Origin: Cyanobacteriota bacterium
GTDB taxonomy: Bacteria > Cyanobacteriota > Vampirovibrionia > JBFMGH01
Direction: 5' to 3'
Length of the DNA stretch: 64,000 bases
NCBI GenBank assembly: GCA_040752795.1
Contig: JBFMGH010000608.1
Coordinates: 110,325 to 174,324 of the forward strand
In this document: in pieces, positions 16,807 through 58,991 of the stretch
How positions within the stretch are numbered: position 1 is the stretch's first letter
How the letters are laid out: every line of letters begins with the position of its first letter
Position numbers and translations under genes: made by a program
Notes under the pieces: model-generated
What the model was told of the DNA's origin: nothing
The model's input: the letters and a program-made list of their open reading frames with translations, nothing else
Databases searched by the model: none

Positions 16807-16878
16807 TCCTCAGTAGCTCAATGGTAGAGCATGCGGCTGTTAACCGCAGGGTTGTAAGTTCGAATCTTACCTGAGGAG
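16807..16878 (+). tRNA. tRNA-Asn (anticodon GUU)
   Basis: Cloverleaf folded by hand: acceptor UCCUCAG/CUGAGGA, D-arm GCUC..AGAGC, anticodon stem UGCGG/CCGCA with loop CUGUUAA, T-arm GUAAG-UUCGAAU-CUUAC, discriminator G. CCA is not encoded. A T-run follows. Confidence 0.85.
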
Positions 16879-17667
16879 CTTTTTAATTGACAGGCTGTAA
16901 ACACTTGTTATAAAGACTTTTAAGGCACTTGGGTTATTATATAAAAATATGTATGAATTCAGGTGTGTATAAAAATAACAGCTTTTTTTAACATTAACGT
17001 AAGATTTTAATAGAGAAAAAATAAGTTGATTTATAAATAATAATTTGGGTTTTCTTGTTCGAATTGTTCCATTCTATTTTCATTCAAAATGATTGCTAAA
17101 AGTGAATAGAAATAACTCCGATGGTTATATTACTCACTATAAAATGAACAATCAAAATGAACATCTAATAAAGCAAAAGAAAACAATTTTTTTACTGATT
17201 CAATAAAGGTAATAAATATTCGAACAATTTTTCTGTTTAAAAGTATAGTAAGCTGTAAAGAAAAAAAAATTTTTCGATATTTTCCATAGGGCTTAGATCG
17301 TTAATTTACATATAATTAGAAAAAAGTATTTTTCTGGAGCCAAGAATTTATAACTAAATCAGGTAAAATATAAATTTAAAAAATTTACATATTGTTGCAT
17401 TTGGCCAAAAGGAGTTTCTCGTAAGTATTATGCTTAAATTGATCCGAATGCTAGTGATGTAGCATCTTCACTATTCTTAACTTTTAAGCAAAATAGGTTC
17501 CGTGAAATGTAGACGTGTAAACAATGTTAGCTTGCTAGTAGGTTAAAAAAAACCAAATCTTTTTTTTGGTGTAACAGTTGTTGTTAAAGTAGATCAGTGG
17601 CCCACCCGCCCGCCCAAAGCTTTGCCAGTTAGAAAAACAATGAAAAAAATCTGTTAACATAAAATAA

Positions 17668-17731: not shown

Positions 17732-18148
17732 TTACCGGAGCTCTTCTAATAGTAATTGAGCTTTTTTCATAAGTTCTGGTTTATCCAGATCGGGTTTGAG
17801 TTCCAGATATTTATCCAGAGCTTTTAAGGGAGATTTGTAGAACGTAGCATTTAGCTCAGGGAGGTTAGTTCTTGACGGATTTTGAACTACAACCGGAGTT
17901 ATGCTACAAAAGGAGGTTCTAGTAAGTTTTTCCTTAAGTTTTCCTACGTTTATAGAATGAACCTGTTCGGGAGAGACAGAGTATATTATTTTTATGACAC
18001 AGTCTTCTATTTCGTGGTTTTCAATAGTAGAAATAATTTTTTGTTGTGGGTCAGAGTCATTAACAGCATCAATAACGATAGTTTTAAACTTGCTAGGTTT
18101 AAATAGTACAGTATTTCCTTTGAATCGATCTTTATGAAAGCTTGCCAC
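17732..18148 (-). CDS. Hypothetical protein, 138 aa
   Basis: ORF with a downstream terminator. No recognisable domain. Confidence 0.45.
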   Translation of the reverse strand: MASFHKDRFKGNTVLFKPSKFKTIVIDAVNDSDPQQKIISTIENHEIEDCVIKIIYSVSPEQVHSINVGKLKEKLTRTSFCSITPVVVQNPSRTNLPELNATFYKSPLKALDKYLELKPDLDKPELMKKAQLLLEELR

Positions 18149-18473: not shown

Positions 18474-20438
18474 TTAGAGTCTTCTCATATCTTTATCAGC
18501 TATTATAAAAAGATTTATAAGGTCATCCAGCTCTTTAGCTCTTCTCTGATAATAACTTATATCATCTTCTAATTGTCTGATAAGTTGTTTCTGTTCTTCA
18601 ATTTTATTAATATTATCTTTCATATATTTTTGCAGTTTAGCTTGTGCGCCCTGAGCATCTGAAAGAACTTCAGACATTGAAATGCCCATTGCTTCCATAG
18701 TTTGCCTGATTATTTGAGCTCCGGTTTGTCTTGTAACACCTGGAGGCAAAGTAGAAACCAGTTTTATAAGAGTTTCAACATTTGAATTAAATAATTCTAC
18801 CCTTCTACGAGTGGCCCTTTCATCTCTTCTAGGATCAAAATCTCTATCTCTTGACATATCATTGTACGACCTGTCATCATATCTGTGATAATCTCTTGAT
18901 GAATCGTGATAAAGCCTATCATCATATCTGTGATAGTCGCGAGATGATTCCTGATAAGATCTATCATCATACCTGAGAGAATCTCTATGTGGTTCATGGT
19001 AAGATCTGTCATCGTGCTTGTTGTAACCTCTATCATCAGGTCTATAAGGTTCAGGATGTGTTTCACGATAGCCTCTATCATCAGGTCTATAAGGTTCAGA
19101 ATGTGTTTCACGATAGCCTCTATCATCAGGTCTATAAGGTTCAGGGTGTGTTTCACGATAGCCCCTATCATCAGGTCTATAAGGTTCAGGGTGTGTTTCA
19201 CGAGGCCTGTAGTGATCAGACTGATCTTGCGCATAATGTTTACGAGGTTCAGGTTGAGGTTCGTGATAGCTTCTATTGTCAGGTTTGTAAGGTTCAGGTT
19301 TAACAGGTGGAGATGTTATATGAGGATCCCTCTCTTGTGATACATTATAGTCTTTAGGCTGATATTGATCAAGATCTAAAGGAGACTTTGAAGGTTCTTG
19401 AGGTTTAGCATACTGTGGCTCAACTCCCGGGTGAATAGAGTCAAGATCAATAGTTCTTTGAGGTTCCTGTCTCCTAGGAATCTCTTCCCATTGCTGATTT
19501 TGATTCATTTGTTGTTGTGGGTATCCTATTTGAACTTCTTGTGGTTCATAACTATCGTAAGTCGACATTTCTTGCTTATGCGGTTGATATGGCTCAGGTT
19601 CATACTGCTCTGGTTCTAATTGTTGATTGTAATCATCCTCCTGATAGGAGTATTGATTATAACCAATATTTGCTTGAGCATGAGAAGCATGGGCAGGTTG
19701 TGGAGTATATTCCTGGTATTCCTGAGTCTCGTAAGGTTGATATTCTGTAAACTCCTGGGGATAATCTTCTGTTTCAGGAGGATCCACCTCTTCAAGTGCT
19801 GGCTGTTGTTGCATCTCTTGATAAGCTCTCCCCTGAGAATATCCTAATTGAGGGGGCTGATATTCTGGTACATCAGAATCATCTTCAAATTGTTGAATAT
19901 CATCACTAAAGTCATCATAAGATTGTTGATTGTAATTAAAATCATCTTGAGCCTGTTGCTCATATCTTTGAGGGTCAAAGCTTTGTGGATCATAAGATTG
20001 CTGATCATATGACGGCTGATCATATGATTGTTCATTGTAATCAATAGACATAGGGGTTTCTTCTGACATCATTTGTTCTTCAATTGGTGCAAAACTTCCG
20101 TATTGGGGAGTATCCGTAGTAGTAGTCATACCGTCTAGGTCAGGTAATTCTGAAGTCATTTCGGGCTGAAATTCAGTGGGTTCAAGAGGACCAGGTTCTT
20201 CATCATAGTGCATTTCTTGAGATCCAAAATCCATATGTGAAATAGTTTCCAGACCATGATTAGCATCAGGTTGATGAGCAGCATAAGGATCAACAGGTAC
20301 TTCTTGATAAGTTGATTGAGCAGCTGCTTGACCTGTTTGAACTTCAGGGTCTTGGGTTTTTAAAGCCTGAATGATTTTCTTACCTAATCCATCTGGAAGT
20401 TTACTTTGTCTTTTAGAATCCACTAATATGCTCTCCAA
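18474..20438 (-). CDS. Large intrinsically disordered Q/Y/D/P/E-rich repeat protein (654 aa) with a short structured C-terminal domain
   Basis: About 540 aa of low complexity (SYDQPSYDQQSYDPQSFDPQRYEQQ). Four or five tandem copies of ETHPEPYRPDDRGYR, then RYDDRSY..SSRDYH repeats. Ends with a ~110-aa non-repetitive, helical-looking domain (VELFNSNVETLIKLVSTLPPGVTRQTGAQIIRQTMEAMG...). Confidence 0.6.
   Translation of the reverse strand: MESILVDSKRQSKLPDGLGKKIIQALKTQDPEVQTGQAAAQSTYQEVPVDPYAAHQPDANHGLETISHMDFGSQEMHYDEEPGPLEPTEFQPEMTSELPDLDGMTTTTDTPQYGSFAPIEEQMMSEETPMSIDYNEQSYDQPSYDQQSYDPQSFDPQRYEQQAQDDFNYNQQSYDDFSDDIQQFEDDSDVPEYQPPQLGYSQGRAYQEMQQQPALEEVDPPETEDYPQEFTEYQPYETQEYQEYTPQPAHASHAQANIGYNQYSYQEDDYNQQLEPEQYEPEPYQPHKQEMSTYDSYEPQEVQIGYPQQQMNQNQQWEEIPRRQEPQRTIDLDSIHPGVEPQYAKPQEPSKSPLDLDQYQPKDYNVSQERDPHITSPPVKPEPYKPDNRSYHEPQPEPRKHYAQDQSDHYRPRETHPEPYRPDDRGYRETHPEPYRPDDRGYRETHSEPYRPDDRGYRETHPEPYRPDDRGYNKHDDRSYHEPHRDSLRYDDRSYQESSRDYHRYDDRLYHDSSRDYHRYDDRSYNDMSRDRDFDPRRDERATRRRVELFNSNVETLIKLVSTLPPGVTRQTGAQIIRQTMEAMGISMSEVLSDAQGAQAKLQKYMKDNINKIEEQKQLIRQLEDDISYYQRRAKELDDLINLFIIADKDMRRL
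18860..19210. repeat. Tandem 45-bp (15-codon) repeat array inside the disordered-protein gene
   Basis: Near-identical 45-bp units cctctatcatcaggtctataaggttcagRRtgtgtttcacgatag begin at 19027, 19072, 19117 and 19162. More diverged 45-bp units lie at 18862-19020. Confidence 0.8.
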
Positions 20439-20701
20439 AACCTCACTATTTAAACAATATTATATTTCAATAAACGACAAACATAAAATTCTATAATAAA
20501 ATATAAAATATCTTTAACTATACAATTTCTAGTAATATTGGATTTGTTGCACATAATTATTATTTATCTGTTGTGAAGATATAGTTACAAAAAATGAAAT
20601 TTATTGCAAATAAATAATTGATTTCATATAGCTGGTTGGCCTAAAATAAACTGTTTCTATGTTATACTTTTTGAGATATTGCTTTAGGAGAGAAAGTAAT
20701 T

Positions 20702-22057
20702 ATGCAAAAATCCCCAAACCAAAATATATATCCTATTACGATGAATGTTAACTCCAGAGCCCATCTAGAAATAGGTGGATGTAGTGCCATTGAACTGTCT
20801 TCTAAGTTTGGTACGCCTCTATATATTATAGATGAAGATACTTTAAGAAAAACTATACAGGATTATAAATTGCAATTTTCTTCAAAATATGAAGATAGCC
20901 TTGTTTTATATGCAGCTAAATCTTTTGTTTGTGAGTCAATATGCCATATATTGCACGAAGAAGGTATAGGTATAGATGTTGTGTCAGGTGGTGAATTATA
21001 TCTTGCTCTTAAAGCAGGGATTCCATCATCTAAAATATATTTTAATGGTAATAATAAATCAAAAGAAGAGATTGTATTGGCTATTGATAATGAAATAGGG
21101 GCTATCATTGTAGATAATTTTTATGAACTTCAGATTTTAAATAAAATTGCAACATCAAAATCTAAATCCTGTCCTATAATGTTACGTATTACTCCTGGAA
21201 TTGAGTGTCATACCCATGAATATATTAAAACAGGTCAGATAGATAGTAAATTTGGCTTTGATTTAACTCAAATAGAAGAAGCAGTCAGACAAATTACCTC
21301 TAAATATAAAAAATTGGATCTTCAGGGGTTGCATGCTCATATAGGTTCACAAATATTTGAACTGGATTCTTATGCAGATCTAGTTAGTATCTTACTTGAG
21401 CAATATGCAAAAATTAAAAATGATTATGGCCTCGAATTGACAAAAATAAACGTTGGAGGAGGCCTTGGAATAAAATATACCGAAGAAGATCAACCTCCTC
21501 ATATCTCACAGGTAGCCAGTATTATATCCCGGTCTATTAATGAAAATGCTTCAAAGCTTTCTTTAGAAAAACCGATGTTGTTGTTAGAGCCTGGCAGAAG
21601 CATAATAGGCCCATCGGGCGTTACTTTGTATGAAATAGGAAGTATTAAAGAGGTGCCTGGTATCAGAAAATATGTTTCTGTGGATGGAGGTATGGCGGAT
21701 AACCCCAGACCTGCTATGTATCAATCAGTTTATACCGCATGTGTAGCTAATAAAATGTTAGAAAAAAATAAGGAAGTTGTTACTGTAGCTGGTAGATTTT
21801 GTGAATCTGGTGATATACTTATAAAAGATATTGAACTAGCGAAAACTGTTAGTGGAGATATATTAGCTGTATTTGCAACTGGAGCCTATAATTATTCAAT
21901 GTCAAGCAATTATAATATGGTGCCAAGGCCAGCTTGTGTCATAGTAAAAGATGGTAATGCCGATATAATAATAGAAAGAGAATCTTATCAAGATTTAATT
22001 GCCCATGATAAGGTTCCTTCTAGATTGCTGAAGTATAAAAATATGCCTGTAGTTTAG
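20702..22057 (+). CDS. lysA: Diaminopimelate decarboxylase
   Basis: Orn/DAP/Arg decarboxylase family 2 (PLP-binding barrel; LYAAKSF..., GGG.GI, EPGR..). AGGAG RBS. Confidence 0.9.
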   Translation: MQKSPNQNIYPITMNVNSRAHLEIGGCSAIELSSKFGTPLYIIDEDTLRKTIQDYKLQFSSKYEDSLVLYAAKSFVCESICHILHEEGIGIDVVSGGELYLALKAGIPSSKIYFNGNNKSKEEIVLAIDNEIGAIIVDNFYELQILNKIATSKSKSCPIMLRITPGIECHTHEYIKTGQIDSKFGFDLTQIEEAVRQITSKYKKLDLQGLHAHIGSQIFELDSYADLVSILLEQYAKIKNDYGLELTKINVGGGLGIKYTEEDQPPHISQVASIISRSINENASKLSLEKPMLLLEPGRSIIGPSGVTLYEIGSIKEVPGIRKYVSVDGGMADNPRPAMYQSVYTACVANKMLEKNKEVVTVAGRFCESGDILIKDIELAKTVSGDILAVFATGAYNYSMSSNYNMVPRPACVIVKDGNADIIIERESYQDLIAHDKVPSRLLKYKNMPVV

Positions 22058-22069
22058 AGGATACATATT

Positions 22070-22999
22070 GTGCCTTTTAACATTCCTGAATATTTAAATG
22101 TTTTTGACTTTATCTACAAACCTTTTGAGGGGTTCGTTGATCAGATATGGATGAAGCCTATTAATATTTTCCAAATAGCTCTTCTGGCGTTTATAGTTTG
22201 GAAAATATACACACGTATTAAAGGCACTCAGGCTGAACAGCTTTTAAAAGGTATACTGGTTATTGTTTTTGCTCTAATATTGAGCCAGGCCTTTCAGCTT
22301 GAAATTATAAGTAAGGTATTAGAGAATCTTGTAAGCGTTGTATTGGTAGGTCTTGTTGTTATATTTCAACCTGAACTCAGACGAATATTAGGCTACCTTG
22401 GCCAAACAGGTGTTTTCTCAAAAAATATTTTTGGTTTTGGAACCGAAAGTGATATTAAAAGGCTCATTGGTTTAGTATGTGAAGCAATAAAGCATCTTAG
22501 CAAAAAACATATTGGAGCTTTAATTGTACTAGAAGATACTGCTTCTCCTGAAACTTTTCTTGAAGTGGGGACACCACTAAATGCAGATATAAGTACAGAG
22601 CTTATATTAACAATATTTCACCCTAATACTCCCCTGCATGATGGGGCTATTGTTGTTAATGGAAATAAAATAGTTGCAGCTGGAGTATTGCTACCTCTGA
22701 CAGAAGACCCTAAACTTAGCTGGCAATATGGAACAAGACATAGAGCTGCTATCGGAATGAGTGAAATTTCTACTGCCATGTGTATTGTTGTTTCAGAAGA
22801 AACCGGCGAAGTCTCACTGGCAAAAGAAGGTGTTTTGAAAAAATATTCAGATATAGAAGAAATGAAAAGAGTTCTTGAGGAAACTTATACTAAAGCCTAT
22901 TCTTCTAAGCAAAAAGGCGATCCATCAAATACTTTTCAGGATATATTATCATCAGATATTACAAAACTATCGAATATATTACCCGGCAAAAAGAAATAA
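22070..22999 (+). CDS. cdaA: Diadenylate cyclase CdaA (DisA_N domain) with N-terminal transmembrane helices
   Basis: DAC-domain motifs DGA (PLHDGAIVVNG) and GTRHRAA (QYGTRHRAAIGMSE), preceded by ~3 TM helices. GTG start 13 nt after lysA, with RBS AGAGGA. Confidence 0.85.
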   Translation: MPFNIPEYLNVFDFIYKPFEGFVDQIWMKPINIFQIALLAFIVWKIYTRIKGTQAEQLLKGILVIVFALILSQAFQLEIISKVLENLVSVVLVGLVVIFQPELRRILGYLGQTGVFSKNIFGFGTESDIKRLIGLVCEAIKHLSKKHIGALIVLEDTASPETFLEVGTPLNADISTELILTIFHPNTPLHDGAIVVNGNKIVAAGVLLPLTEDPKLSWQYGTRHRAAIGMSEISTAMCIVVSEETGEVSLAKEGVLKKYSDIEEMKRVLEETYTKAYSSKQKGDPSNTFQDILSSDITKLSNILPGKKK

Positions 23000-23006
23000 A
23001 ATCAAT

Positions 23007-23031
23007 CACACCACCTCTAATGGGTGGTGTG
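23007..23031. terminator. Perfect 9-bp stem-loop (CACACCACC-TCTAATG-GGTGGTGTG) immediately after cdaA; probable terminator or RNA-stability hairpin without a strong U-tract
   Basis: Read directly from the sequence. 7-nt loop. Downstream is A-rich, not U-rich. Confidence 0.4.
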
Positions 23032-23703
23032 CTATTAAAAACGTGTTATTAATTTGTTTAACTTTTTAAATGGTTAAATTATCACGCACCTTTCGTGTCT
23101 TTACCAAGATATTACTAATATGCCCTGCTTGTTAAATTTTTAAACTTATTATATTAATGTTTGTTACAAAAAAGAATTTAGTCTGCATGTTTGTAGAATA
23201 CTCTTAGATTTTCGCCTTAACAAATTGTTGAACAATTGTCTTAATCTGTGTCATGCTTGACCAAAATTTGAAAACGCTTAATTGACCATATTGGTTGAAT
23301 TTCTAAAGTTAGTTCAAATTAGAAATCAAATATAATGTCATGTTTGACTTTTATAGTAAGTAACATTATTTATATTTAAGAAAAACAGGCGAAAAATTCC
23401 CCATAATCGGTACTTCAATGAGTTAAGAAGAAATATAAAGTAAATTTTATGAAACATTTTAGCAAAAATTTTTTTGCCTTGAACTTCTTATAAAATAAGA
23501 GTTTTAGTTCGTGAAATAAAAATTTTCAAAAAAACTTGTTTCATGTTTTTCTACTCCTGTTATAATTATTCTACTAAGAGTTTCACTACGAAGATTGTTG
23601 TGCTCATAGGATAATAGTATACAAACAAATGTGTAATCAATAAACAAGTTACTAGTCACCTTACAGGGTAACTAGGAGTGGATAAATACGTTTTTTTGAT
23701 GAT

Positions 23704-24288
23704 GTGGATAACGTAAAAGCAAAAAAAGTTGGAGGGATCTATTTGTTAAAGAATGGTTATGTACAGATCTATACCGGTGATGGTAAAGGCAAAACCACAG
23801 CATCCTTAGGGTTGGCACTGAGAGCAATAGGTCATGGCTGGAAAGTTTTAATTATACAGTTTACAAAAGGTGAAAAAGAAGAAAACGGAGAAAACTTTTA
23901 CGGAGAATTGAAAGCTGCATCTAAATTCATGGCAAACCTTGAAGTTATGCAGTTTGGGCTTGATAGGGTTGTTTATTCCTCCAACATTAGTATTGAAGAT
24001 TACAAAGAAACCCGTAAAGGTTGGGAACGAGCCAAAGAAGCCGTTGCCAGTGGAGAATATGGTTTAATTATTCTTGACGAAATTAATGTTTGCATTGATC
24101 TTAATATGATTAAACTCTCTGAGGTTAAAGAACTTCTTATAAATAGACCCAAGCATCTTGAAGTTGTTCTTACCGGAAGAAGAGCTCATCCTGAATTAAT
24201 TTCAATGGCCCATCTGGTTACAGAAATGAAACCAATCAAACATTATTTCGATGTAGGAGTAAAGGCAAGAAGAGGAATTGAATACTAA
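23704..24288 (+). CDS. cobO: Cob(I)yrinic acid a,c-diamide / cob(I)alamin adenosyltransferase (CobA/CobO/BtuR family)
   Basis: P-loop YTGDGKGKTTASLGLALRAIGHG. LIILDE and C-terminal KHYFDVGVKARRGIEY are typical of CobA. Confidence 0.8.
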   Translation: MDNVKAKKVGGIYLLKNGYVQIYTGDGKGKTTASLGLALRAIGHGWKVLIIQFTKGEKEENGENFYGELKAASKFMANLEVMQFGLDRVVYSSNISIEDYKETRKGWERAKEAVASGEYGLIILDEINVCIDLNMIKLSEVKELLINRPKHLEVVLTGRRAHPELISMAHLVTEMKPIKHYFDVGVKARRGIEY

Positions 24289-24297
24289 AGCGTAACT

Positions 24298-24323
24298 CCC
24301 CGGCATTTAGTCGGGGTTTTTTT
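24298..24323 (+). terminator. Rho-independent terminator of cobO
   Basis: CCCCGGcatttagtCGGGG followed by TTTTTTT. Confidence 0.7.
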
Positions 24324-24545
24324 ATTTCTGTTGGTCTCTTTGAACCGTTTGTAATTCACAAAATTCTTCTACCTGTATTTATTCTTTATGATTGTTTGTA
24401 TGAGAAATAATTAAAAATTTATTTGTACCGTAATTACATTAAAAAATTCATAAAAAAACTTCTCTTTTCATGTATTTTCGCTTTGTTTGATATACACTTG
24501 GAAAAATATGCGAAAACAAAATGTTGATAAGAGAAATAATTTTTT

Positions 24546-25295
24546 ATGACTACTAAACAAACATCTTTATTTGAAACAGCAAAAGAAATAGTAATAGAAA
24601 CCCCCATAAGACACGTTGCTGTTATTATGGATGGTAATAGACGTTGGGCGAAAAAACATAATTTCATAAAAACAGTTGGACACGATAATGGTAGAAAAAC
24701 TTTTAAAAATATAGTTAAACATTCAGCAAAATTAAAACTACACTGTCTTACTACGTATGCTTTTTCAACTGAAAATTGGGGAAGAGACCCGGATGAAGTT
24801 AAATTTTTAATGGGCTTGTTGGTGGAATCTCTTAAAAACGAAATTAAAGAGCTTTGCGAGAATAATATAAGGCTTAGATTTATTGGTAGAAGAGATAGGC
24901 TAAATAAAGATGTGGTTAAAAAAATGGAAAATGCTGAAAATAGCACAGCTGAAAATACTGGCCTGATTCTTCAAATTGCCATTGATTACGGTAGCAGGTA
25001 TGAAATTACATATGCTTTAAGACAAATAACTCAAAAAGTCCAGAATGGTGAACTGTCTATTAATGATATAGATGAAAATCTTATTGGTTCTTGCCTGTAT
25101 ACTAGTACTGTTCCGGATCCAGACCTTATTATAAGAACTGGTGGGGAATACAGATTGAGTAATTACCTTCTATGGCAGGCTGCCTATAGTGAGTTATATA
25201 TAACAGACACTTTCTGGCCTGACTTTTTAGAGAATGAATTTGACATGGCTATAATAGATTTCAGTAAAAGACATAGAAGATGGGGAAAAGACTAA
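24546..25295 (+). CDS. uppS: Isoprenyl transferase (undecaprenyl diphosphate synthase)
   Basis: HVAVIMDGNRRWAKK, and the ...RTGGE.R.SN.LLWQ.AY.E... cis-prenyltransferase signature. Confidence 0.9.
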   Translation: MTTKQTSLFETAKEIVIETPIRHVAVIMDGNRRWAKKHNFIKTVGHDNGRKTFKNIVKHSAKLKLHCLTTYAFSTENWGRDPDEVKFLMGLLVESLKNEIKELCENNIRLRFIGRRDRLNKDVVKKMENAENSTAENTGLILQIAIDYGSRYEITYALRQITQKVQNGELSINDIDENLIGSCLYTSTVPDPDLIIRTGGEYRLSNYLLWQAAYSELYITDTFWPDFLENEFDMAIIDFSKRHRRWGKD

Positions 25296-25907: not shown

Positions 25908-28900
25908 ATGGTTAGCATCTTTTTAAAATGGTTTAAATCTTTATTCATTTTATGTTTATTAGTAATGACTGCAAATAATTTTACTTATGCTTATGACAAC
26001 CTTTCTAAAGAAGAAAAAACGATTTTTTACTCTTCTAATATTCTTGGAGAATGCTCTTTTTTAATCTCAGATGTATTGTCTAATAGCCAGATCATGGGCG
26101 TTGCAAATTTAGATGCTAAACTGGAGTATGTTAAAAAGCAACTTACACTTGAACCTCCTCTTGTTGAAGATTTAAAAGTTTCTAAAAAAACATTACAAAC
26201 ACTAAAAAAATTTATTGAAGAAGTTAATGAATCCTATAATGAAAAGACATTTAAACTAAAAAAACTAGAACAGGCTAATAAAACTTTTGGCGATTATTCT
26301 GTAGAGCTAAGAGAAGACATTAATAAGTTGTATGGCCCTAAGTATACCTGGCTGTTTGATACAGGTTTCCTTGTTTCTTTTACCAAAGCTTCAATGATAT
26401 CAGATTATAAGAATAAACTTGTATTGTTAGAGTACAAATTTCTGCTTGATTATGTGCCCTATAATATGCCTACCAGTGTAATAAGCTCGTTATCATCTAT
26501 TGCTACTGTTAAAGATGAGGAATTAACACAAAATCAGGTAGAGATACTAAAAGAAGCATCTGATAATATGATATCTTACTTTACAAGCCCCGAGACATAT
26601 TCGCCACCGGCTACTTTAAGAGATCTTGTGGGGAAATGGGAAGGAAGACTGGCCCCTCCTAATGGAGATTATCATAAAGCAAATATTTCAATTACCCCAG
26701 ATATGAGTGCTATATTAAATGTTGAAGGCATGTTTAAAGATATGCCAGTGAATGACTTAACAGTAACTCAGAGTTTGGTTAGCTTTAATATTAAACCCTT
26801 TGCTGATGAACAGCTTATAATAAGATTTTCTGGAAGAATAGTCGATGATGTATTATCGGGCGAAGCTATTGATGTATCTGGTAAAAAAGGTTTATGGCAA
26901 TTTTTGAAAACCCCACAGGTTGATCTAAGTGAATTAGTTAATGCTGAAATAAAAACAGAACCAACAGCCCTTGATAAATTATCAGGTGTTTGGAAAGGTA
27001 AAATACTCGAACAAGATGGAGCAATATCTAATTTAACCCTTCGATTCAATATAGTTGATGATAGTGTGATGTTTGTTGAAAATCCTAACCATAAAAAGAC
27101 TCTTAAGCTTAATTCTGTAGCTGCTAATGATAAGGCAGTCAGGTTTAGCATTTCTCCTGATAATGGTGATATCAATATTACATTTATGGGTGAAATTAAG
27201 GGTAGAATATTAGAAGGGAATGCAATAGGAACAGATGGCAATAAGGCCTATTGGAAAATTATTAAAGTTGAAGATAAACTTACTAAGCCTCAATTAAAGA
27301 GTGATGCTGGTTTTTTTTTCTTGGATCATTTATGTGATCCTATTGTAGACAATTCCTTTATTGAAGGCTTCACGTTAGTTTCTAAAAATATAATTGTGCC
27401 GCCACCTAAAATTAATGAAGGCAAATATAAAGGCCATCTTATTTTTGAAGATGGCTCTAGGGCAGGGCTTGTTCTTGTTTTGTCTAATAAGCAGTCCAAG
27501 ATGTACCTTTTTAGCAAGGAGGATAACTCAAAAATATCTTTAGATATTGATTTAATGAATATTACAGATAGAGAAATAACAATAGATACAACAATAGATG
27601 GCAATAAAGATACTCTGGTTAAGTTTAAAGGCAAAGTTTTTGGAGGATATATTTATGGCGATGCTGTAAATATTGCTGGTGAAAATCTTAAATGGGAACT
27701 TATGGCTGTTGATAAAGCAGATACATTTTTAAGCAATGTTAATTCTTCAAATGTAAAAAGAATAAAAGGCTTATGGAATGGAATGGTGACCTTCTCTAAC
27801 TTGTTTGAGGTGCCTGTAAAACTTGTTATTTCAGATGATGAAACAAAAATGTACTTCGATGACGCAAAAATCTTACTAATATCAGATATTATTCTTGATG
27901 GGACATCGGTTAGCTTCGTTGCAAAGAATGAAGCTGATCCCATGCAAACCATAACCTTTAATGGCAACCTAGAAGAACAGAGTATAACTGGAAAAATAAC
28001 TACAGTTAATGGTCTGGGGCTTGATGTGGTGCTTTCTATGTCTGAAAAATATCAAGAAGATCCATTGAAAGGTATCTGGGCAGGGAGAATTATGCTAGAT
28101 AATGCTTCTGCTGATATTGTATTTGACTTTGTAGAAGATAAAAAGAAAGTTTATATTGATGACTCTAGAGCAGAATCAGGTAGAGTAGAACTATTAATAA
28201 GTAATTTAGTTAAAGATTCTAAAGGAATTAAATTTACAGCTAATACATCTAAAAGCCCTTCAAAAATTGAATTTGTTGGTACTTTTGATAGAGAACTTCT
28301 CAAAGGATCTGCAAAAAATCAGATACAGGGATCTAATAAACTTAATTGGGAAACTTCTAAATCTAATCTAAGTAAGTATGATCCCGAAAGTATTGAGATA
28401 GTATTACATTCTGAACCTGAAAATGCAGGGTATAAAAAAACGTTTTCTTTTCTTGATGAAATGGATAACCTTAATGACAGCAAAATAGATAATGAAACTA
28501 ATGATAAAGTTACTGAAAAAGAAGATAAAACAACTTCAACTATAGATAAAAAACCAGATGAAACTGAAATAAAAGAAAATAAAACAGATGAAATCCTTTC
28601 TCAAAAAGTGATAAATGCAGATGAGATAGATAAAACCAAACAAGATAAAAAAGATAAAGATGTTGATATTGATGAAAGTTCTTCAGAAAAAGAGATTACG
28701 AAAAAAAATGATAAAGAAAGTAAGATAGATAAAAAGATAAAAAAAGATAAATCTAAAAAATCAAGTGAAAATATCAATAAAGAGGAAAATAACAGATCTT
28801 CAGATAAGAAATCAAAGAAAACTAAAAAAACTAAATCTAAAAAAGAAAAACCTGACAAAGTAAAATCAGAAAAAGATACTAAAACAAAGGATAAAAGTAA

Positions 28901-29807
28901 ATCTGAAAAAGAAGATAAGTCTAAACAGTCTGAAGAAGAGAAAATGTCTGATAATAAAAAACCTTCGGATAAGAAATCAAAGAAAACTAAGAAAACTGAA
29001 TCTAAAAAAGAAAAACCTGACGAAATAAAGTCAGAAAAAGATACTAAAACAAAAGATAAAAATAAATCGGTAAAGGATGATCAATCTAAACAGCCTAAAG
29101 AAGAGAAAATATCTGATGAAGATCTGTTTGAAAAATCTAAAATTAAAAAGGCCAGAGAAAATTTAAATTCTGAAACACCTAAAACAGATAAATTAAAAGA
29201 AAAGAAAAAGGATAAGAAAAAAAGAAGATGGCCTTTTGGACGCAAGGACAAAGATAAAACACAAAAAAATAAGCAAAAAGAAGTCGATGTAATACAAGAA
29301 AATCCTGTTAAAGTTGAAGATAATACTGAAGTAATACAGGAAGAGACCTCTGATAAAGATGATAATAAAGAGGAAAATATAAAAAACCCTGAAGAAGATA
29401 AAAGCATTGAATCCAAAGATTTACAGATAAATACTGAAGATAAGCAAATAGAAGAATCTGATGAGATACAAGAATCTAAACAAGAAGATATGCAAGTAGC
29501 TATTGGAGATGAGCTTATTGGTAAATGGGTAGGAGAATTATTTAATCCTCAGGGTGATAAAGGGGAGATATTAATAGATCTTAAGAAATCTGATAGCTAT
29601 ATCTATGTTAATAAAGAAGGTGAAAAAGTTCCGTTTAAATTACTTGACTTAAAAATAAATGGTAAGAATATATATTTTAAAATAAAGCCATCACCTGATT
29701 CAGACTATGGCATAATATTTGATGGGTCTTTAATACAGGGAGTATTGTCCGGAACAGCAACTGACCCCACAGGCAACAAAGGCAAATGGCATGCGCAAAA
29801 GCCCTGA
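25908..29807 (+). CDS. Giant secreted modular protein (1299 aa): signal peptide, six ~95-aa GxWxG...GxKxxW modules, and a K/D/E-rich low-complexity spacer
   Basis: N-terminal signal (MVSIFLKWFKSLFILCLLVMTANNFTYA). Module starts: LVGKWEGRL, LSGVWKGKI, IKGLWNGMV, LKGIWAGRI, LIGKWVGEL, plus one degenerate. Each module ends G.A.D..G.K..W. The ~350-aa spacer is rich in K, D and E. Confidence 0.6.
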   Translation: MVSIFLKWFKSLFILCLLVMTANNFTYAYDNLSKEEKTIFYSSNILGECSFLISDVLSNSQIMGVANLDAKLEYVKKQLTLEPPLVEDLKVSKKTLQTLKKFIEEVNESYNEKTFKLKKLEQANKTFGDYSVELREDINKLYGPKYTWLFDTGFLVSFTKASMISDYKNKLVLLEYKFLLDYVPYNMPTSVISSLSSIATVKDEELTQNQVEILKEASDNMISYFTSPETYSPPATLRDLVGKWEGRLAPPNGDYHKANISITPDMSAILNVEGMFKDMPVNDLTVTQSLVSFNIKPFADEQLIIRFSGRIVDDVLSGEAIDVSGKKGLWQFLKTPQVDLSELVNAEIKTEPTALDKLSGVWKGKILEQDGAISNLTLRFNIVDDSVMFVENPNHKKTLKLNSVAANDKAVRFSISPDNGDINITFMGEIKGRILEGNAIGTDGNKAYWKIIKVEDKLTKPQLKSDAGFFFLDHLCDPIVDNSFIEGFTLVSKNIIVPPPKINEGKYKGHLIFEDGSRAGLVLVLSNKQSKMYLFSKEDNSKISLDIDLMNITDREITIDTTIDGNKDTLVKFKGKVFGGYIYGDAVNIAGENLKWELMAVDKADTFLSNVNSSNVKRIKGLWNGMVTFSNLFEVPVKLVISDDETKMYFDDAKILLISDIILDGTSVSFVAKNEADPMQTITFNGNLEEQSITGKITTVNGLGLDVVLSMSEKYQEDPLKGIWAGRIMLDNASADIVFDFVEDKKKVYIDDSRAESGRVELLISNLVKDSKGIKFTANTSKSPSKIEFVGTFDRELLKGSAKNQIQGSNKLNWETSKSNLSKYDPESIEIVLHSEPENAGYKKTFSFLDEMDNLNDSKIDNETNDKVTEKEDKTTSTIDKKPDETEIKENKTDEILSQKVINADEIDKTKQDKKDKDVDIDESSSEKEITKKNDKESKIDKKIKKDKSKKSSENINKEENNRSSDKKSKKTKKTKSKKEKPDKVKSEKDTKTKDKSKSEKEDKSKQSEEEKMSDNKKPSDKKSKKTKKTESKKEKPDEIKSEKDTKTKDKNKSVKDDQSKQPKEEKISDEDLFEKSKIKKARENLNSETPKTDKLKEKKKDKKKRRWPFGRKDKDKTQKNKQKEVDVIQENPVKVEDNTEVIQEETSDKDDNKEENIKNPEEDKSIESKDLQINTEDKQIEESDEIQESKQEDMQVAIGDELIGKWVGELFNPQGDKGEILIDLKKSDSYIYVNKEGEKVPFKLLDLKINGKNIYFKIKPSPDSDYGIIFDGSLIQGVLSGTATDPTGNKGKWHAQKP
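28804..29125. repeat. ~165-bp (55-codon) tandem duplication within the K/D/E-rich spacer of the giant protein
   Basis: Two near-identical DNA units encode SDKKSKKTKKTKSKKEKPDKVKSEKDTKTKDKSKSEKEDKSKQSEEEKMSD and SDKKSKKTKKTESKKEKPDEIKSEKDTKTKDKNKSVKDDQSKQPKEEKISD. Confidence 0.75.
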
Positions 29808-55919: not shown

Positions 55920-58900
55920 TTAATTGAGGCTTTCTCTTTCAATTTCGACCATAGTGGTGACTTTAATAAGGTCACCTTTTTGCAGGTCGTTGAATTTATT
56001 GAATGAAATACCACATTCGTATCCTGAAGCAACTTCTTTAGCGTCGTCTTTAAATCTTTTTAAGTTATCAAGATTGCCTTTGTAAATTTCTTTATTCTCT
56101 CTCAGTACAGTTGCTGTTCTATTCCGTACAACTTTACCATCGAGAACGTAACAACCTGCAATAACTAAATTTTTTCCAACTGTAAATAAGTCTCTAACTT
56201 CAGCTACACCTAGTTCAATCTCTTTAAGCTCTGGTTTAAGGAGGCCCAGCATGGTTTTTTCAATATCTTCTGAGATCTGGTAAATGATTTCATATGTTCT
56301 TATGCTAACGCCTTCTTCTGCTGAAACTCTTAGAGCGTTTGGATCTTCTTTTACACCAAATCCAATTATTATTGCATCACTGGTGGCTGCTAACATAACG
56401 TCAGCTTCAGATATATCACCAACGCCGCTGTGTATAAGTTTTACTTTGATTTCTTTAGATTTAAGTTCTTGTAAAGCTGTTTCAACAGCTTTTGCTGAGC
56501 CATCAGTGTCGGATTTTATAATAATATTAAGTTCTTTGATTTCGTTATCAGTTTTTTTCTTCTGTTTAGCTGTAAAGATGGTATCTTTTTGAAGTTTAAT
56601 TGGTCCCTGGCTGCTAAGTCTTTTTTCTCTATCTTCTTCTTTACGCTTACTAACAATTTGTTTGAGTTCTTTATCGCTTTCAACTACTGCAAATGTGTCT
56701 CCTGCATTAGGAACATCGCCTAACCCCAAAATTTCTACTGGAGTACTTGGACCTGCTTCAACAACTCTTTCCCCATGGTCATTGATAAGAGCTCTTACTT
56801 TACCTCCAACGCTTCCTACAACAACAAAATCTCCGATGTATAATGTGCCATTTTGAACTAAAACTCTTGCTACAGCACCTTTGCCTTTGTCTAGTTCGGC
56901 TTCAATGACAACACCAGTTGCCTTGGCGGTTGAATCTGCCTTAAGCTCTTGCATTTCAGCGACAAGTGTTATCATTTCAAGTAAGTCGTCTATGTTTTCA
57001 CCTTTAAACGCACTTATTTTTACAGTTACAGTTTCACCGCCCCATTCTTCGGGTATGAGGTTGTGTTCAGTAAGTTGTTGTAAAATTCTGTCGGGATCAG
57101 CATTAGATTTATCAATTTTATTAATAGCCACAATAATTGGCACTTCTGCGGCTTTAGCGTGGTTTATAGCTTCAACAGTTTGAGGCATAACGCCATCATC
57201 TGCAGCAACAATCAAGATTGCTATATCAGTTGCCTGAGCTCCTCGAGCTCTCATCGCTGTAAATGCTTGGTGGCCTGGTGTATCAATAAATACAATTTTA
57301 TTATTGTTATATTCAACGGTATAAGCACCAATTGACTGGGTTATACCACCAACTTCTGCGTCTACAAGTTTGTGTTTAGAGGCTCTAATAGAATCAAGAA
57401 GCGTTGTTTTACCGTGATCAACGTGCCCTAATATTGTAACAATGGGTGCTCTTTTTTCTAATTTGCTTTTATCTATTGTTGATTCTTTTTCTTCATCTTC
57501 TTTTTTGTCTTCAATTTCAGGTTCTTTTTCTTTTATTATTTCTTCTATAATTTGATATCCTAATTTTTCAGTTACTTCTTTTGCTAAATCTTCACTAATG
57601 GTTTCGTTTATAGTTGCAAATACACCAGCTTTCATAAGTTCTTTAATGATTTCAGCAGCACTAATTTTCAATAATTTAGCTAGTTCTGCTATAATCATTG
57701 CCTCTTTGATACATACTTCGGTAGGAATCTCTTCCACGACCTCTTTTTTAGGAGGTTTCTTTTTCTTGAAGATTTCTGTTATAGGTTTTAGATCTTGATA
57801 TTTATCTTTTTTCTTTGGAAGTTCTTTTTTGTGTCCGTGTTTTACACCAGGTTTTGCGGCTGGTTTATTACCGTCTGTTGTTGCTGAATTTACTCTAATA
57901 GGTCCATTATCCTCTTGTTTTGGCTTTTCTTTATACCTTATATCAGGACGATCTACTGGTCTGATATCTTTTTTATCCCGAGGTTCAAATCTTCTATCTG
58001 TAGATCTTTCTCTAGGTCTGTCATCAGGTCTATCTCTTCGCTTATCTCTAGGTCTGTCATCAGGTTTTACATGATGTCTCTTTTCAAATCTTTCACCTGG
58101 TTGGCGCTCAGTTTTAGTGGCTGGTGCGGTTTCTTCTTTTAGAAGAGTTTTAGTTTCAGCTGTTTGATCAATACTTTCTACAGTTGTAATGTCTGGTTTT
58201 TCTGCTGGTTTAAAATCAGTTTTTCCTTGAATCGTTTCGTCAGTTTTAATATTATGTTGTGTGGAATGTTTAAAGTATTGAGGTTTTCTGCCGGTTGGTT
58301 TCCCTCTCTGTTGTTGTTTAGCTCCAGCTCCAGGTGCTGGAGTAGATGGTTTAAGTCGATACTTATTACCAGAGATACCAAATGGTTTATCTCCTCCGAA
58401 GGGTTTTCTGAATTTTTCATGAGGAGATTCTGATTGATTTTGTTCAGTTGATTGTTGTTGTGGATTCTGGCCAGGTTTTTGGTGTTGTCTGTTTAAATCC
58501 CTTTGTTGTTTGTACATGTCTGGTCTTTTATGTACTGACCTGTCAGGAACATAGCCTTTAGAAGGTGTTCTGTCTCCAGATGATTGCTCAGCATTAGTTC
58601 TTGTAGGTGCGTGTGGTTGTGCTTGTTGCACTTTTCTTTCTGCGGGTTGGGCTTCCATTGGAGCTGGCTTTGGTTCTTTTTTGGGTTCAGTTGCAGGCTC
58701 TGATAATTTAGTTTGATTTGTTTGTGGACTAGTTATTTCAGCTATTGTTTCTGGTTTTATCGATTCTTCAGATTTTGATTCTGGTGTTGGCTCTGGTGCA
58801 GAGGGTTGTTTTTTACTGGAACTATCAGAACCTGTAAAAGCTCTAAGCTTATCTGCCACATCTTGACTAATAGTGCTTGAGTGACTTTTTACGGATATAT

Positions 58901-58991
58901 TAAGCTTATCTTTTAAGAGATTAATCAAAACCTTATTAGGAGTTCCTAACTCCCTTGCAAGGTCATAGATTCTTACTTTTTCAGGTGACAT
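55920..58991 (-). CDS. infB: Translation initiation factor IF-2, with a long low-complexity N-terminal region
   Basis: G-domain GHVDHGKTTLLD...DTPGH...NKID, and a conserved C-terminal β-barrel. Confidence 0.95.
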   Translation of the reverse strand: MSPEKVRIYDLARELGTPNKVLINLLKDKLNISVKSHSSTISQDVADKLRAFTGSDSSSKKQPSAPEPTPESKSEESIKPETIAEITSPQTNQTKLSEPATEPKKEPKPAPMEAQPAERKVQQAQPHAPTRTNAEQSSGDRTPSKGYVPDRSVHKRPDMYKQQRDLNRQHQKPGQNPQQQSTEQNQSESPHEKFRKPFGGDKPFGISGNKYRLKPSTPAPGAGAKQQQRGKPTGRKPQYFKHSTQHNIKTDETIQGKTDFKPAEKPDITTVESIDQTAETKTLLKEETAPATKTERQPGERFEKRHHVKPDDRPRDKRRDRPDDRPRERSTDRRFEPRDKKDIRPVDRPDIRYKEKPKQEDNGPIRVNSATTDGNKPAAKPGVKHGHKKELPKKKDKYQDLKPITEIFKKKKPPKKEVVEEIPTEVCIKEAMIIAELAKLLKISAAEIIKELMKAGVFATINETISEDLAKEVTEKLGYQIIEEIIKEKEPEIEDKKEDEEKESTIDKSKLEKRAPIVTILGHVDHGKTTLLDSIRASKHKLVDAEVGGITQSIGAYTVEYNNNKIVFIDTPGHQAFTAMRARGAQATDIAILIVAADDGVMPQTVEAINHAKAAEVPIIVAINKIDKSNADPDRILQQLTEHNLIPEEWGGETVTVKISAFKGENIDDLLEMITLVAEMQELKADSTAKATGVVIEAELDKGKGAVARVLVQNGTLYIGDFVVVGSVGGKVRALINDHGERVVEAGPSTPVEILGLGDVPNAGDTFAVVESDKELKQIVSKRKEEDREKRLSSQGPIKLQKDTIFTAKQKKKTDNEIKELNIIIKSDTDGSAKAVETALQELKSKEIKVKLIHSGVGDISEADVMLAATSDAIIIGFGVKEDPNALRVSAEEGVSIRTYEIIYQISEDIEKTMLGLLKPELKEIELGVAEVRDLFTVGKNLVIAGCYVLDGKVVRNRTATVLRENKEIYKGNLDNLKRFKDDAKEVASGYECGISFNKFNDLQKGDLIKVTTMVEIERESLN

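Follow-up and report, generated by a model that had tools for sequence, protein, structure and literature searches.

The low-complexity gene on the minus strand at positions 18474..20423 of the window (the whole 64,000-nucleotide stretch of contig JBFMGH010000608.1, from a Cyanobacteriota metagenome-assembled genome, MAG) encodes a protein whose sequence clearly places it in a conserved, unnamed family spanning the Melainabacteria. The original prediction had described a prion-like or FUS-like protein that could not be placed in a known family. It remains correct that no named family matches; the protein is nonetheless no orphan, as its long form is common to a whole clade and the family turned up in at least 112 species when one genome per species was scanned. 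We consider the chances even that this protein, the longest known member of its family, would act as a cytoplasmic oligomeric hub or tether whose disordered spacer is tunable by repeats, PopZ-like in design. A scaffold or condensate-forming factor, as first proposed from composition, continues to be the most plausible class, and the proposal now draws on family architecture beyond composition. Membership of the family, its domain structure and its repeat dynamics are well supported; its function we infer.

The C-terminal 125 amino acids (aa) of the window protein retrieved 12 homologs with phmmer at 1e-17 to 1e-37, mostly 176–219 aa long with two shorter, and Gastranaerophilales MAG proteins were among them. 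Carriers found in the genome scan are labelled Gastranaerophilales, Melainabacteria, Vampirovibrio/Vampirovibrionales, Caenarcanum or “Cyanobacteria bacterium UBA...”, along with a few differently labelled MAG bins. A family profile searched against 1.84 billion representatives gave 280 matches, 243 of them at E <= 1e-10, and recovered at 3e-67 the database copy of the window protein (P0014; NCBI MEW5822412.1, “hypothetical protein”, from a Cyanobacteriota MAG). A word-indexed profile search returned 1871 clusters at 90% identity, for which the names given by the source are all “hypothetical”. The family is small, sharply bounded and found only in Melainabacteria/Vampirovibrionia, the non-photosynthetic sister lineage of the cyanobacteria.

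Profile searching of the C-terminus, one of the checks proposed with the original prediction, therefore yielded a family, though an unnamed one that has no match in Pfam, NCBIfam or PDB. Scans of the full protein, the C-domain and the short homologs against Pfam, NCBIfam and PHROGs gave only sub-threshold coiled-coil noise (T3SSipB, Uso1, prefoldin, P8_CR), as did searches of PDB sequences, whether the query was a single sequence or a 19-sequence profile. Three short gut-clade homologs (P0249, P0183 and P0241, of which P0241 and P0249 are present on hundreds of contigs from gut samples rich in Gastranaerophilales) scored 15–18 bits (E 0.002–0.02) against PF19065, the central region of the chlorovirus minor capsid protein P8; the gathering threshold of that model is 26.9 bits, the window protein does not match it at all, and these scores are probably helical noise. 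A literature search on division or scaffold proteins of Melainabacteria/Vampirovibrionia found nothing relevant.

The family plan consists of a conserved N-terminal motif and a conserved C-terminal domain, joined by a linker whose sequence is not conserved, and a typical member has ~200 residues (176–220 aa). The folded C-domain of the window protein (18477..18791, minus strand) comprises the head LPPGVTRQTGAQIIRQTMEAMGIS and a ~65-residue helix, modelled by AlphaFold2 (AF2) with predicted local distance difference test (pLDDT) scores of 90–98. It can be summarised as LPPGVTRQTGAQIIRQTMEAMGI followed by a 65-residue coiled-coil helix, ~105 aa in all; in the homolog alignment it opens with LPPGVTRQTGAQIIRQTMEAMGISM and closes with ...LINLFI. 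The window protein fits the family consensus LPxGV[TS][RK]QTGAQII[RK]QT[MI]EA[ML]GI, ending in ...[LI][IS]LF[IV], and its nearest relatives are only 64–66% identical to it in this domain. The family alignment holds 34 invariant columns, and the head motif hardly changes between Vampirovibrionales and gut Gastranaerophilales. In the AF2 model of the window C-terminus, pLDDT exceeds 90 only across the last ~105 residues, in agreement with the earlier view that only some 110 C-terminal residues, including a coiled coil, are folded. Two short helices carry the nearly invariant motif and lead into a single helix of 60–65 residues with a clean a/d heptad pattern, and the short homolog P0010 is modelled with the same fold. 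The model suggests that the long heptad helix is a putative oligomerising coiled coil.

The shape of the head also bears on whether the protein could be a dimeric DNA-binding or nucleoid-associated regulator, in which a helix-turn-helix (HTH) would be made up of the head and the beginning of the long helix, with the acidic linker serving as a DNA-mimicking auto-inhibitor. The segment TGAQIIRQTMEAMG-IS-MSEVL does have the helix, G-[IV]-S turn and helix spacing typical of an HTH, and several Foldseek matches are to HTH domains (MepR, CtsR, Fur, Sap1). These matches are all non-significant, however (E > 3, probability < 0.15), and the same list includes, again without significance, MukF and the non-HTH helical repressor CsoR. 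No HTH family in Pfam matches, the would-be recognition helix (SMSEVLSDAQ) is acidic to neutral and has no conserved basic residue, and the third helix continues for ~65 residues as a coiled coil. We consider such a regulator very unlikely.

The second conserved module, a 24-residue motif overlooked in the original prediction, is the N-terminal peptide (M)DSKRQSKLPDGLGKKIIQALKTQ at 20352..20423 on the minus strand, identified from alignments A1 and A3 and predicted to be a short amphipathic helix with a Lys face. Across the family the motif reads LP[ED]G[VL]GKKI[IV]xALK, and in the first homolog alignment LPEGVGKKIVEALK; its window version, KLPDGLGKKIIQALK, spans residues 8–22 of the protein read from its GTG start. 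A hidden Markov model (HMM) detects the motif in 80 of the 85 loci L001–L085 (80 from the genome scan and five from exact look-up) and in most metagenome loci, and across 1.39 Mb of related loci it occurs in no other protein. The AF2 model of P0010 places a helix at residues 13–23, and a helical wheel worked by hand for VGKKIVEALKK separates a hydrophobic face (V, I, V, A, L) from a Lys face. We also observed that the N motif (LPDGLGKKIIQAL, 20352-20423) resembles the start of the C-domain head (LPPGVTRQTGAQIIRQT, 18700-18760): both have LPxG[VL], then a basic pair, then a helix with I-I/V. This likeness could reflect an internal duplication or head-to-tail self-recognition.

Conservation of the N-peptide is sequence-specific and argues for a protein partner, which is one reason to consider a partner or adaptor of a ParA/MinD-type positioning ATPase, like ParB, McdB, PomX or MinE. 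Here stimulation of the ATPase would fall to the Lys-rich N-peptide, while the C-domain would act as a dimer that either binds the cargo or forms it, and the acidic linker would hold the protein away from the nucleoid. Partner proteins of this kind are typically N-terminally disordered coiled-coil dimers, a description that the family resembles, and the stretch G[LV]GKKI[IV]xAL within the first 25 residues recalls the N-terminal peptide GLG[RK]GLxALL with which ParB/Spo0J reportedly stimulates ParA; we take this resemblance as a lead and not as a test. The N-peptide stretch GLGKKIIQAL is one residue longer than the ParB consensus, the pattern GLG[RK]GLxAL[LI] is unmatched in the family loci, and the 1.39 Mb of related loci contain 0 ParB-type N motifs and 0 ParB boxes. 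A ParA/MinD gene is not a conserved neighbour: the same loci hold one deviant-Walker-A open reading frame (ORF), ~4.5 kb downstream of the family gene at locus L063 and a candidate only. ParB and McdB found no match in Pfam or PHROGs either, and we judge an ATPase partner unlikely.

The amphipathic character of the N helix, with its hydrophobic and Lys faces, is likewise suggestive (and only that) of a membrane tether following the logic of SepF, ZipA or FtsA. The N helix would then bind the inner leaflet, and the acidic linker, repelled by anionic lipids, would project the C-domain into the cytoplasm, where it would bind a cytoskeletal polymer such as FtsZ or MreB, so that linker length would set the distance from membrane to filament. 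SepF has a membrane-targeting helix, a linker and an FtsZ-binding domain, and the linker of ZipA is P/Q-rich; in SepF, in ZipA and in the C-terminal linker of FtsZ, linker length varies greatly between species and sequence is poorly conserved. The tripartite order of the family matches that of SepF and its P/Q-rich linker recalls ZipA, the window protein combining a terminal binding element, a flexible P/Q/E-rich linker and a folded or oligomeric domain. Class-wide conservation and the near-invariant head would also fit a partner as conserved as FtsZ. On the other hand, the helix is short, weakly hydrophobic and devoid of aromatic residues, and strict conservation of LPxGxGKK is unusual for membrane-targeting helices. 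The window protein has no SepF (PF04472), ZipA, FtsA or FtsZ domain in Pfam and NCBIfam scans, no transmembrane (TM) segment and no division-gene link, with no cluster of division or cell-wall genes nearby. We are doubtful of a membrane tether, and regard it as improbable.

Between the two end modules lies the linker, for which we compiled statistics from 120 representatives with both modules. It is net negative in all of them (120/120), at a net charge per residue of -0.13 to -0.19. Linker length spans 46–513 aa overall (median 114, 90th percentile 186), gut-clade linkers measuring ~72–78 aa; the distribution shows a gap from 239 to 417 and then a long group of 417–513 aa, in which the window linker is the longest. 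At 513 aa, the latter has a net charge of ~-70 (-0.14 per residue) and contains 22–23% D+E. The whole protein consists of 11% Q, 11% D, 10% E, 10% P and 8% Y, which confirms the reported composition of about 80% Q/Y/D/P/E-rich low complexity. Most of the charge falls in the first part of the linker (19290..20351, minus strand), an acidic Q/P/E/D/Y-rich disordered region in which residues 31–380 carry a net charge of -63, and the equivalent region of P0010 has pLDDT <50. This part includes a 15-bp mini-repeat of 2.9 copies, detected by Tandem Repeats Finder at 19988..20030 (minus strand) and encoding SYDQ(P/Q)SYDQQSYDP, at the position of which orthologs have (D/E)FDYNQQSY repeats. The charge-hydropathy plot puts the linker deep on the disordered side (<H> 0.295 versus a boundary of 0.462). 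The N-terminus is polar and basic. Signal peptide, TM segment and anchor are all lacking; the best 19-residue Kyte-Doolittle window of the protein reaches 0.66 and lies within the C-domain. Given the lack of a signal peptide or TM segment and the position of the linker in the natively unfolded region of the plot, we consider the protein cytoplasmic and ~80% disordered.

These properties leave little room for the FUS-like or prion-like self-assembly that the original prediction favoured, which would proceed via uncharged Tyr/Gln stickers, or for its hyper-variable surface protein. In their favour, the linker contains 52 Tyr, 61 Gln and eight SY[DEQN] motifs, its SYDQ/SYDP tyrosines are regularly spaced and flanked by Ser or Gln as in the FUS low-complexity domain, disorder is predicted, and repeat copy number is variable. 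The FUS domain, however, is almost uncharged, G/S/Q/Y-rich and furnished with ~27 [GS]Y[GS] triplets, whereas the window linker is a polyanion with one such triplet, 13 Asn and 15 Gly. Acidity is common to every family member, Tyr/Gln-rich or not, and nothing in the sequence would export or anchor the protein at a surface. We regard this pair of readings as highly improbable.

Downstream of the polyanionic part, residues ~381–540 differ in character, with 32 K/R, 42 D/E and 22 aromatic residues; Arg makes up 18% and Asp plus Glu 27%, in short alternating runs such as RPDDRGYRE and RYDDRSY. The R/Y/D mix noted earlier is better described as an Arg-enriched mixed-charge, Tyr-rich region. Listing it in register resolves an Arg/Tyr/Asp/Glu/Pro array of ~ten 15-aa units (18840..19289, minus strand) with the core Y-R-P-[DE]-[DE]-R-x-Y-x-E-P. 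Within it, four near-identical 45-bp units at 19020..19199 (minus strand; register listing and Tandem Repeats Finder) encode ETH(P/S)EPYRPDDRGY(R/N); older units such as YKPDNRSYHEPQPEP lie upstream of them, and three or four RYDDRSYxxSSRDYH units downstream. Tandem Repeats Finder alone reports 3.9 copies of a 45-bp unit at 96% match (19027-19203, minus strand) and a degenerate 45-bp array of 3.2 copies (18868-19013, minus strand). Four exact copies of the repeat core AGACCTGATGATAGRGG are present, where chance would give 0.16. The four-unit block is the most recent expansion, as had been proposed from the near-identity of the units, and diagnostic substitutions distinguish its units from one another.

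The long linker is a clade trait. Long forms comprise eight database representatives (P0014, P0020, P0025, P0027, P0036, P0093, P0107, P0111), the loci L087 and L113, and the fragment L086. In a neighbour-joining tree of the C-domain, which took in only the five long-form representatives passing the C-domain filter plus the fragment P0001, these six form one clade. Linkers in the clade grew from ~70–115 to ~420–510 residues. They gained islands of conservation, namely EHGLETISHMDFGS, PQYGSF, DFDYNQQSYD, IPxYQxPxLG, VQIGY, LDLDAV and PLDLD. The clade alignment further marks the island HGLETISHMDFGSQE (20214..20258, minus strand), a candidate short linear motif kept in seven of eight long-linker representatives (it is divergent in P0111) and also in L087 and L113, with D65, F66 and G67 invariant, as well as the islands TIDLDSIHP ... 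SPLDLD (19368..19454, minus strand), in which D326, L327 and D328 (P0014 numbering) are invariant in the clade. The linkers of four Vampirovibrionales members (L081, L083, L084, L085) have a conserved island of their own, (I)SGGSMxDLSGYKDL[ST]KPP[VI], possibly a relative of the long-linker clade's ISHMDFGS island.

Most clade members also have 14–15-residue Arg/Tyr/acidic/Pro repeats with the core YRP[DE][DE]RxYxEP adjoining the C-domain, and arrays homologous to that of the window are present in P0020, P0025, P0027, P0036, P0107, L086 and P0001. Homogenisation of the units took place separately in the different lineages: the window has 3.9 copies, L087 has 9.0 of another 45-bp unit at 96% match, and L113 has seven 21-residue units of unrelated sequence. 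Copy number differs even between two assemblies of one related species. The L087 and L141 loci, from different samples, are 99.7–99.9% identical in DNA, and their proteins are identical except for a 75-aa gap of exactly five units, nine in the array at L087:3426-3831 versus four in the L141 gene (3001-4755). The anticipated variation in repeat length is thus observed, and it reflects either genuine polymorphism in length or collapse of the array during short-read assembly.

Such collapse is the kernel of the most sceptical explanation, that of an artefact, either a spurious ORF or a mis-assembled repeat region. Short-read assemblers can indeed collapse or expand 45-bp arrays, and L087 and L141 disagree by five units. 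Nevertheless, the gene, its frame, both of its ends and the position and type of its array are conserved in at least eight independent cluster representatives plus syntenic loci, and the four window units differ by diagnostic substitutions; we find an artefact extremely unlikely. Across independent assemblies the array keeps its position and its type; the array itself is therefore real, and only its copy number is in doubt. The original prediction had named assembly artefact as a refuting outcome, and the doubt it raised accordingly persists for the copy number and not for the array. An exact-sequence contig look-up gave no match for the protein from the TTG start or for P0014; the copy number of the window array is uncertain and may be an underestimate.

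The low-complexity ORF is a genuine conserved gene, and the long form is under selection, given an intact frame of ~650 codons in a genome of 33% GC (the window itself is at ~33%), the clade-wide islands and the common repeat core. The mechanically called ORF (18474..20438, minus strand) is present as listed, with 654 aa from a TTG at 20438. In the syntenic ortholog L087, that TTG is out of frame and the ORF begins at a GTG aligned with the one at window position 20423, from which the window protein reads as 649 aa (MDSKRQ...), identical to P0014. Upstream, at 20431..20436 (minus strand), a Shine-Dalgarno-like GGAGAG lies 6–7 nt 5' of the GTG and is unchanged in L087 and L141 despite coding DNA that is only about 70% identical. 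A -10-like hexamer, TATAAT (20459..20464, minus strand; ~36 nt 5' of the GTG), is invariant in the three-way upstream alignment and is inferred to be a putative promoter element. Since the TTG is out of frame in L087, the GTG, GGAGAG and TATAAT are conserved, and P0014 is identical, the GTG at 20423 is most likely the true start, and the coding sequence would be 18474..20423 (minus strand).

Farther upstream, in the divergent intergenic region shared with lysA, the 23-nt block TTTTGTAACTATATCTTCACAAC (20570..20592, minus strand; alignment columns 110-132) is invariant among the window, L087 and L141 in spite of flanking coding DNA only ~67–72% identical. Within it lies the partial dyad TTGT-N12-ACAA, and a regulator of lysA, of the low-complexity protein gene or of both may bind there. 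At the other end, the terminator that had been attributed to the gene was not recovered: a terminator scan found none 3' of the stop codon, and the predicted RNA fold of the 3' region is no better than shuffles (z = 0.9).

We can now outline how a cytoplasmic hub or tether of this design might work. The coiled coil would oligomerise the protein, and the invariant head and the N-peptide would each bind a conserved cellular partner, or one another; conserved partners are proposed because the head is nearly invariant and the conservation of the N-peptide is sequence-specific. The polyanionic, self-repelling linker would serve as an entropic spacer and so determine reach, valency and material properties, a role suggested by linker acidity being universal while sequence and length vary freely. 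In the long-linker clade, the mixed-charge Arg/Tyr 15-residue repeats could make multivalent, cohesive contacts to the acidic part rich in Tyr, and these contacts would offset the much longer polyanion. The 45-bp units may expand and contract in frame via slippage or unequal recombination, and linker length would thereby be evolvable and probably polymorphic.

PopZ provides the closest parallel in design. Its client-binding helix at the N-terminus is followed by a 78-aa acidic, Pro-rich intrinsically disordered region (IDR; net charge of -0.28 for each residue) and, at the C-terminus, by a helical domain for oligomerisation, and the length and charge of its IDR tune the fluidity and material state of its condensates (PMC9512792). 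The family has an N helix, an acidic proline-containing IDR and a C-terminal all-helical domain in the same order, at comparable size (176–220 aa with gut-clade linkers of 70–80 aa, versus 177 aa with a 78-aa IDR), and its linker is always net negative and naturally variable in length. This is an analogy of design only. The family C-domain has one helix of 60–65 residues where PopZ has three short ones, proline makes up 7–12% versus 23–29%, and PopZ belongs to the Alphaproteobacteria, another phylum; the window linker is moreover ~6.5 times longer and includes Tyr-rich and Arg mixed-charge blocks, which are absent from PopZ. PopZ self-assembles into polar condensates or filaments and recruits clients, and for the window protein such localisation, oligomerisation and condensation would be putative.

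A stronger version of this parallel would make the protein a convergent PopZ-like organiser, an oligomeric condensate or microdomain hub that recruits partners, with ~10-fold tuning of linker length by repeats. The N-peptide and the invariant head would do the recruiting, and the Arg/Tyr repeats would compensate the added polyanionic repulsion. Precedent for cohesive mixed-charge sequence comes from Arg-enriched mixed-charge domains, which drive condensation with length-dependent cohesion (bioRxiv 10.1101/771592). Window residues ~381–540, with their alternating Arg and acidic runs, resemble such domains in eukaryotic nuclear-speckle proteins (e.g., the RD/RE regions of U1-70K), but the window array is bacterial, lies inside a net-acidic protein, is Tyr/Pro-rich with a strict 15-residue period and is slightly net negative rather than positive, and condensation is a property of the speckle domains. 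We offer the organiser tentatively and think it rather unlikely.

Several observations weigh against a PopZ-like hub or tether. A strong net negative charge opposes homotypic condensation, and oligomerisation rests on a heptad pattern in a monomer model. The four Vampirovibrionales members with their own linker island have no LPxGxGKK N motif by HMM. Homology to PopZ can be set aside: hhalign of family profile A1 against Caulobacter crescentus PopZ gave a probability of 0.09 (a query that itself matched PF10691 at 3e-24), and PF10691 (DUF2497) had no match at E <= 1. A RPDDRPR-type R/D/P stretch also occurs in the IF-2 of this genome, and the composition of the repeats may partly be a genomic habit for R/D/P-rich linkers and not a specific function. 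Finally, the neighbourhood of the gene is not conserved across orders, with hisD, ctpA, usp, aroE and lysA found nearby. The flanking genes change from order to order, and those that recur are housekeeping genes whose conservation is limited to sub-clades; gene context cannot discriminate among a hub, a ParA/MinD partner, a membrane tether and an HTH regulator.

In the window, lysA, cdaA (a DAC-domain diadenylate cyclase), a cobalamin adenosyltransferase gene and uppS follow in this order on the plus strand (20702-25295). Linkage of lysA, cdaA and uppS is typical of cyanobacteria, and the order fits the Melainabacteria assignment. Downstream of the low-complexity gene and on the same strand lies a 138-aa ORF (17732-18148, minus strand) that matches nothing in Pfam or PHROGs. 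L087 and L141 each have an ORF of precisely this length at the corresponding position, and L086 has a homolog; it is a second conserved unknown, specific to the long-linker clade neighbourhood. A tRNA-Asn gene lies beyond it at 16807-16879. The 1023-aa IF-2 homolog (55920-58991, minus strand) has a ~400-residue low-complexity N-terminal region, in which we observed RPDDRPRDKRRDRPDDRPRERSTDRRFEPRDKKDIRPVDRPDIRY (~58015-58031) and RPDDRPRDKRRDRPDDRPRE, of the RPDDR type seen in the array. On the plus strand, a 1299-aa ORF (25908-29807) begins with a signal-like hydrophobic segment and contains several repeated ~100-aa modules. It also carries a ~350-residue K/E/D/S-rich low-complexity insert with a near-duplicated ~60-aa segment (SDKKSKKTKKT.SKKEKPD..KSEKDTKTKDK), and its region shows a strong AT skew (0.28) in the composition profile.

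The cell biology of the Melainabacteria/Vampirovibrionia is almost uncharted, and the group includes human and animal gut commensals and an algal predator. The family described here offers a good entry point, being class-wide, class-restricted, almost invariant in its head in the orders sampled and unannotated in the databases searched. If the hub or tether is true, its members would form a natural series, with linkers of 46–513 residues between the same end modules, for studying the effects of spacer length and charge, a series to which the apparently variable within-species copy number adds; to our knowledge, the spacer-length question has so far been addressed mainly with engineered PopZ variants. 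Even if the protein should turn out to be a generic tether, an orphan “prion-like” call has been replaced by a defined family and a corrected start codon.

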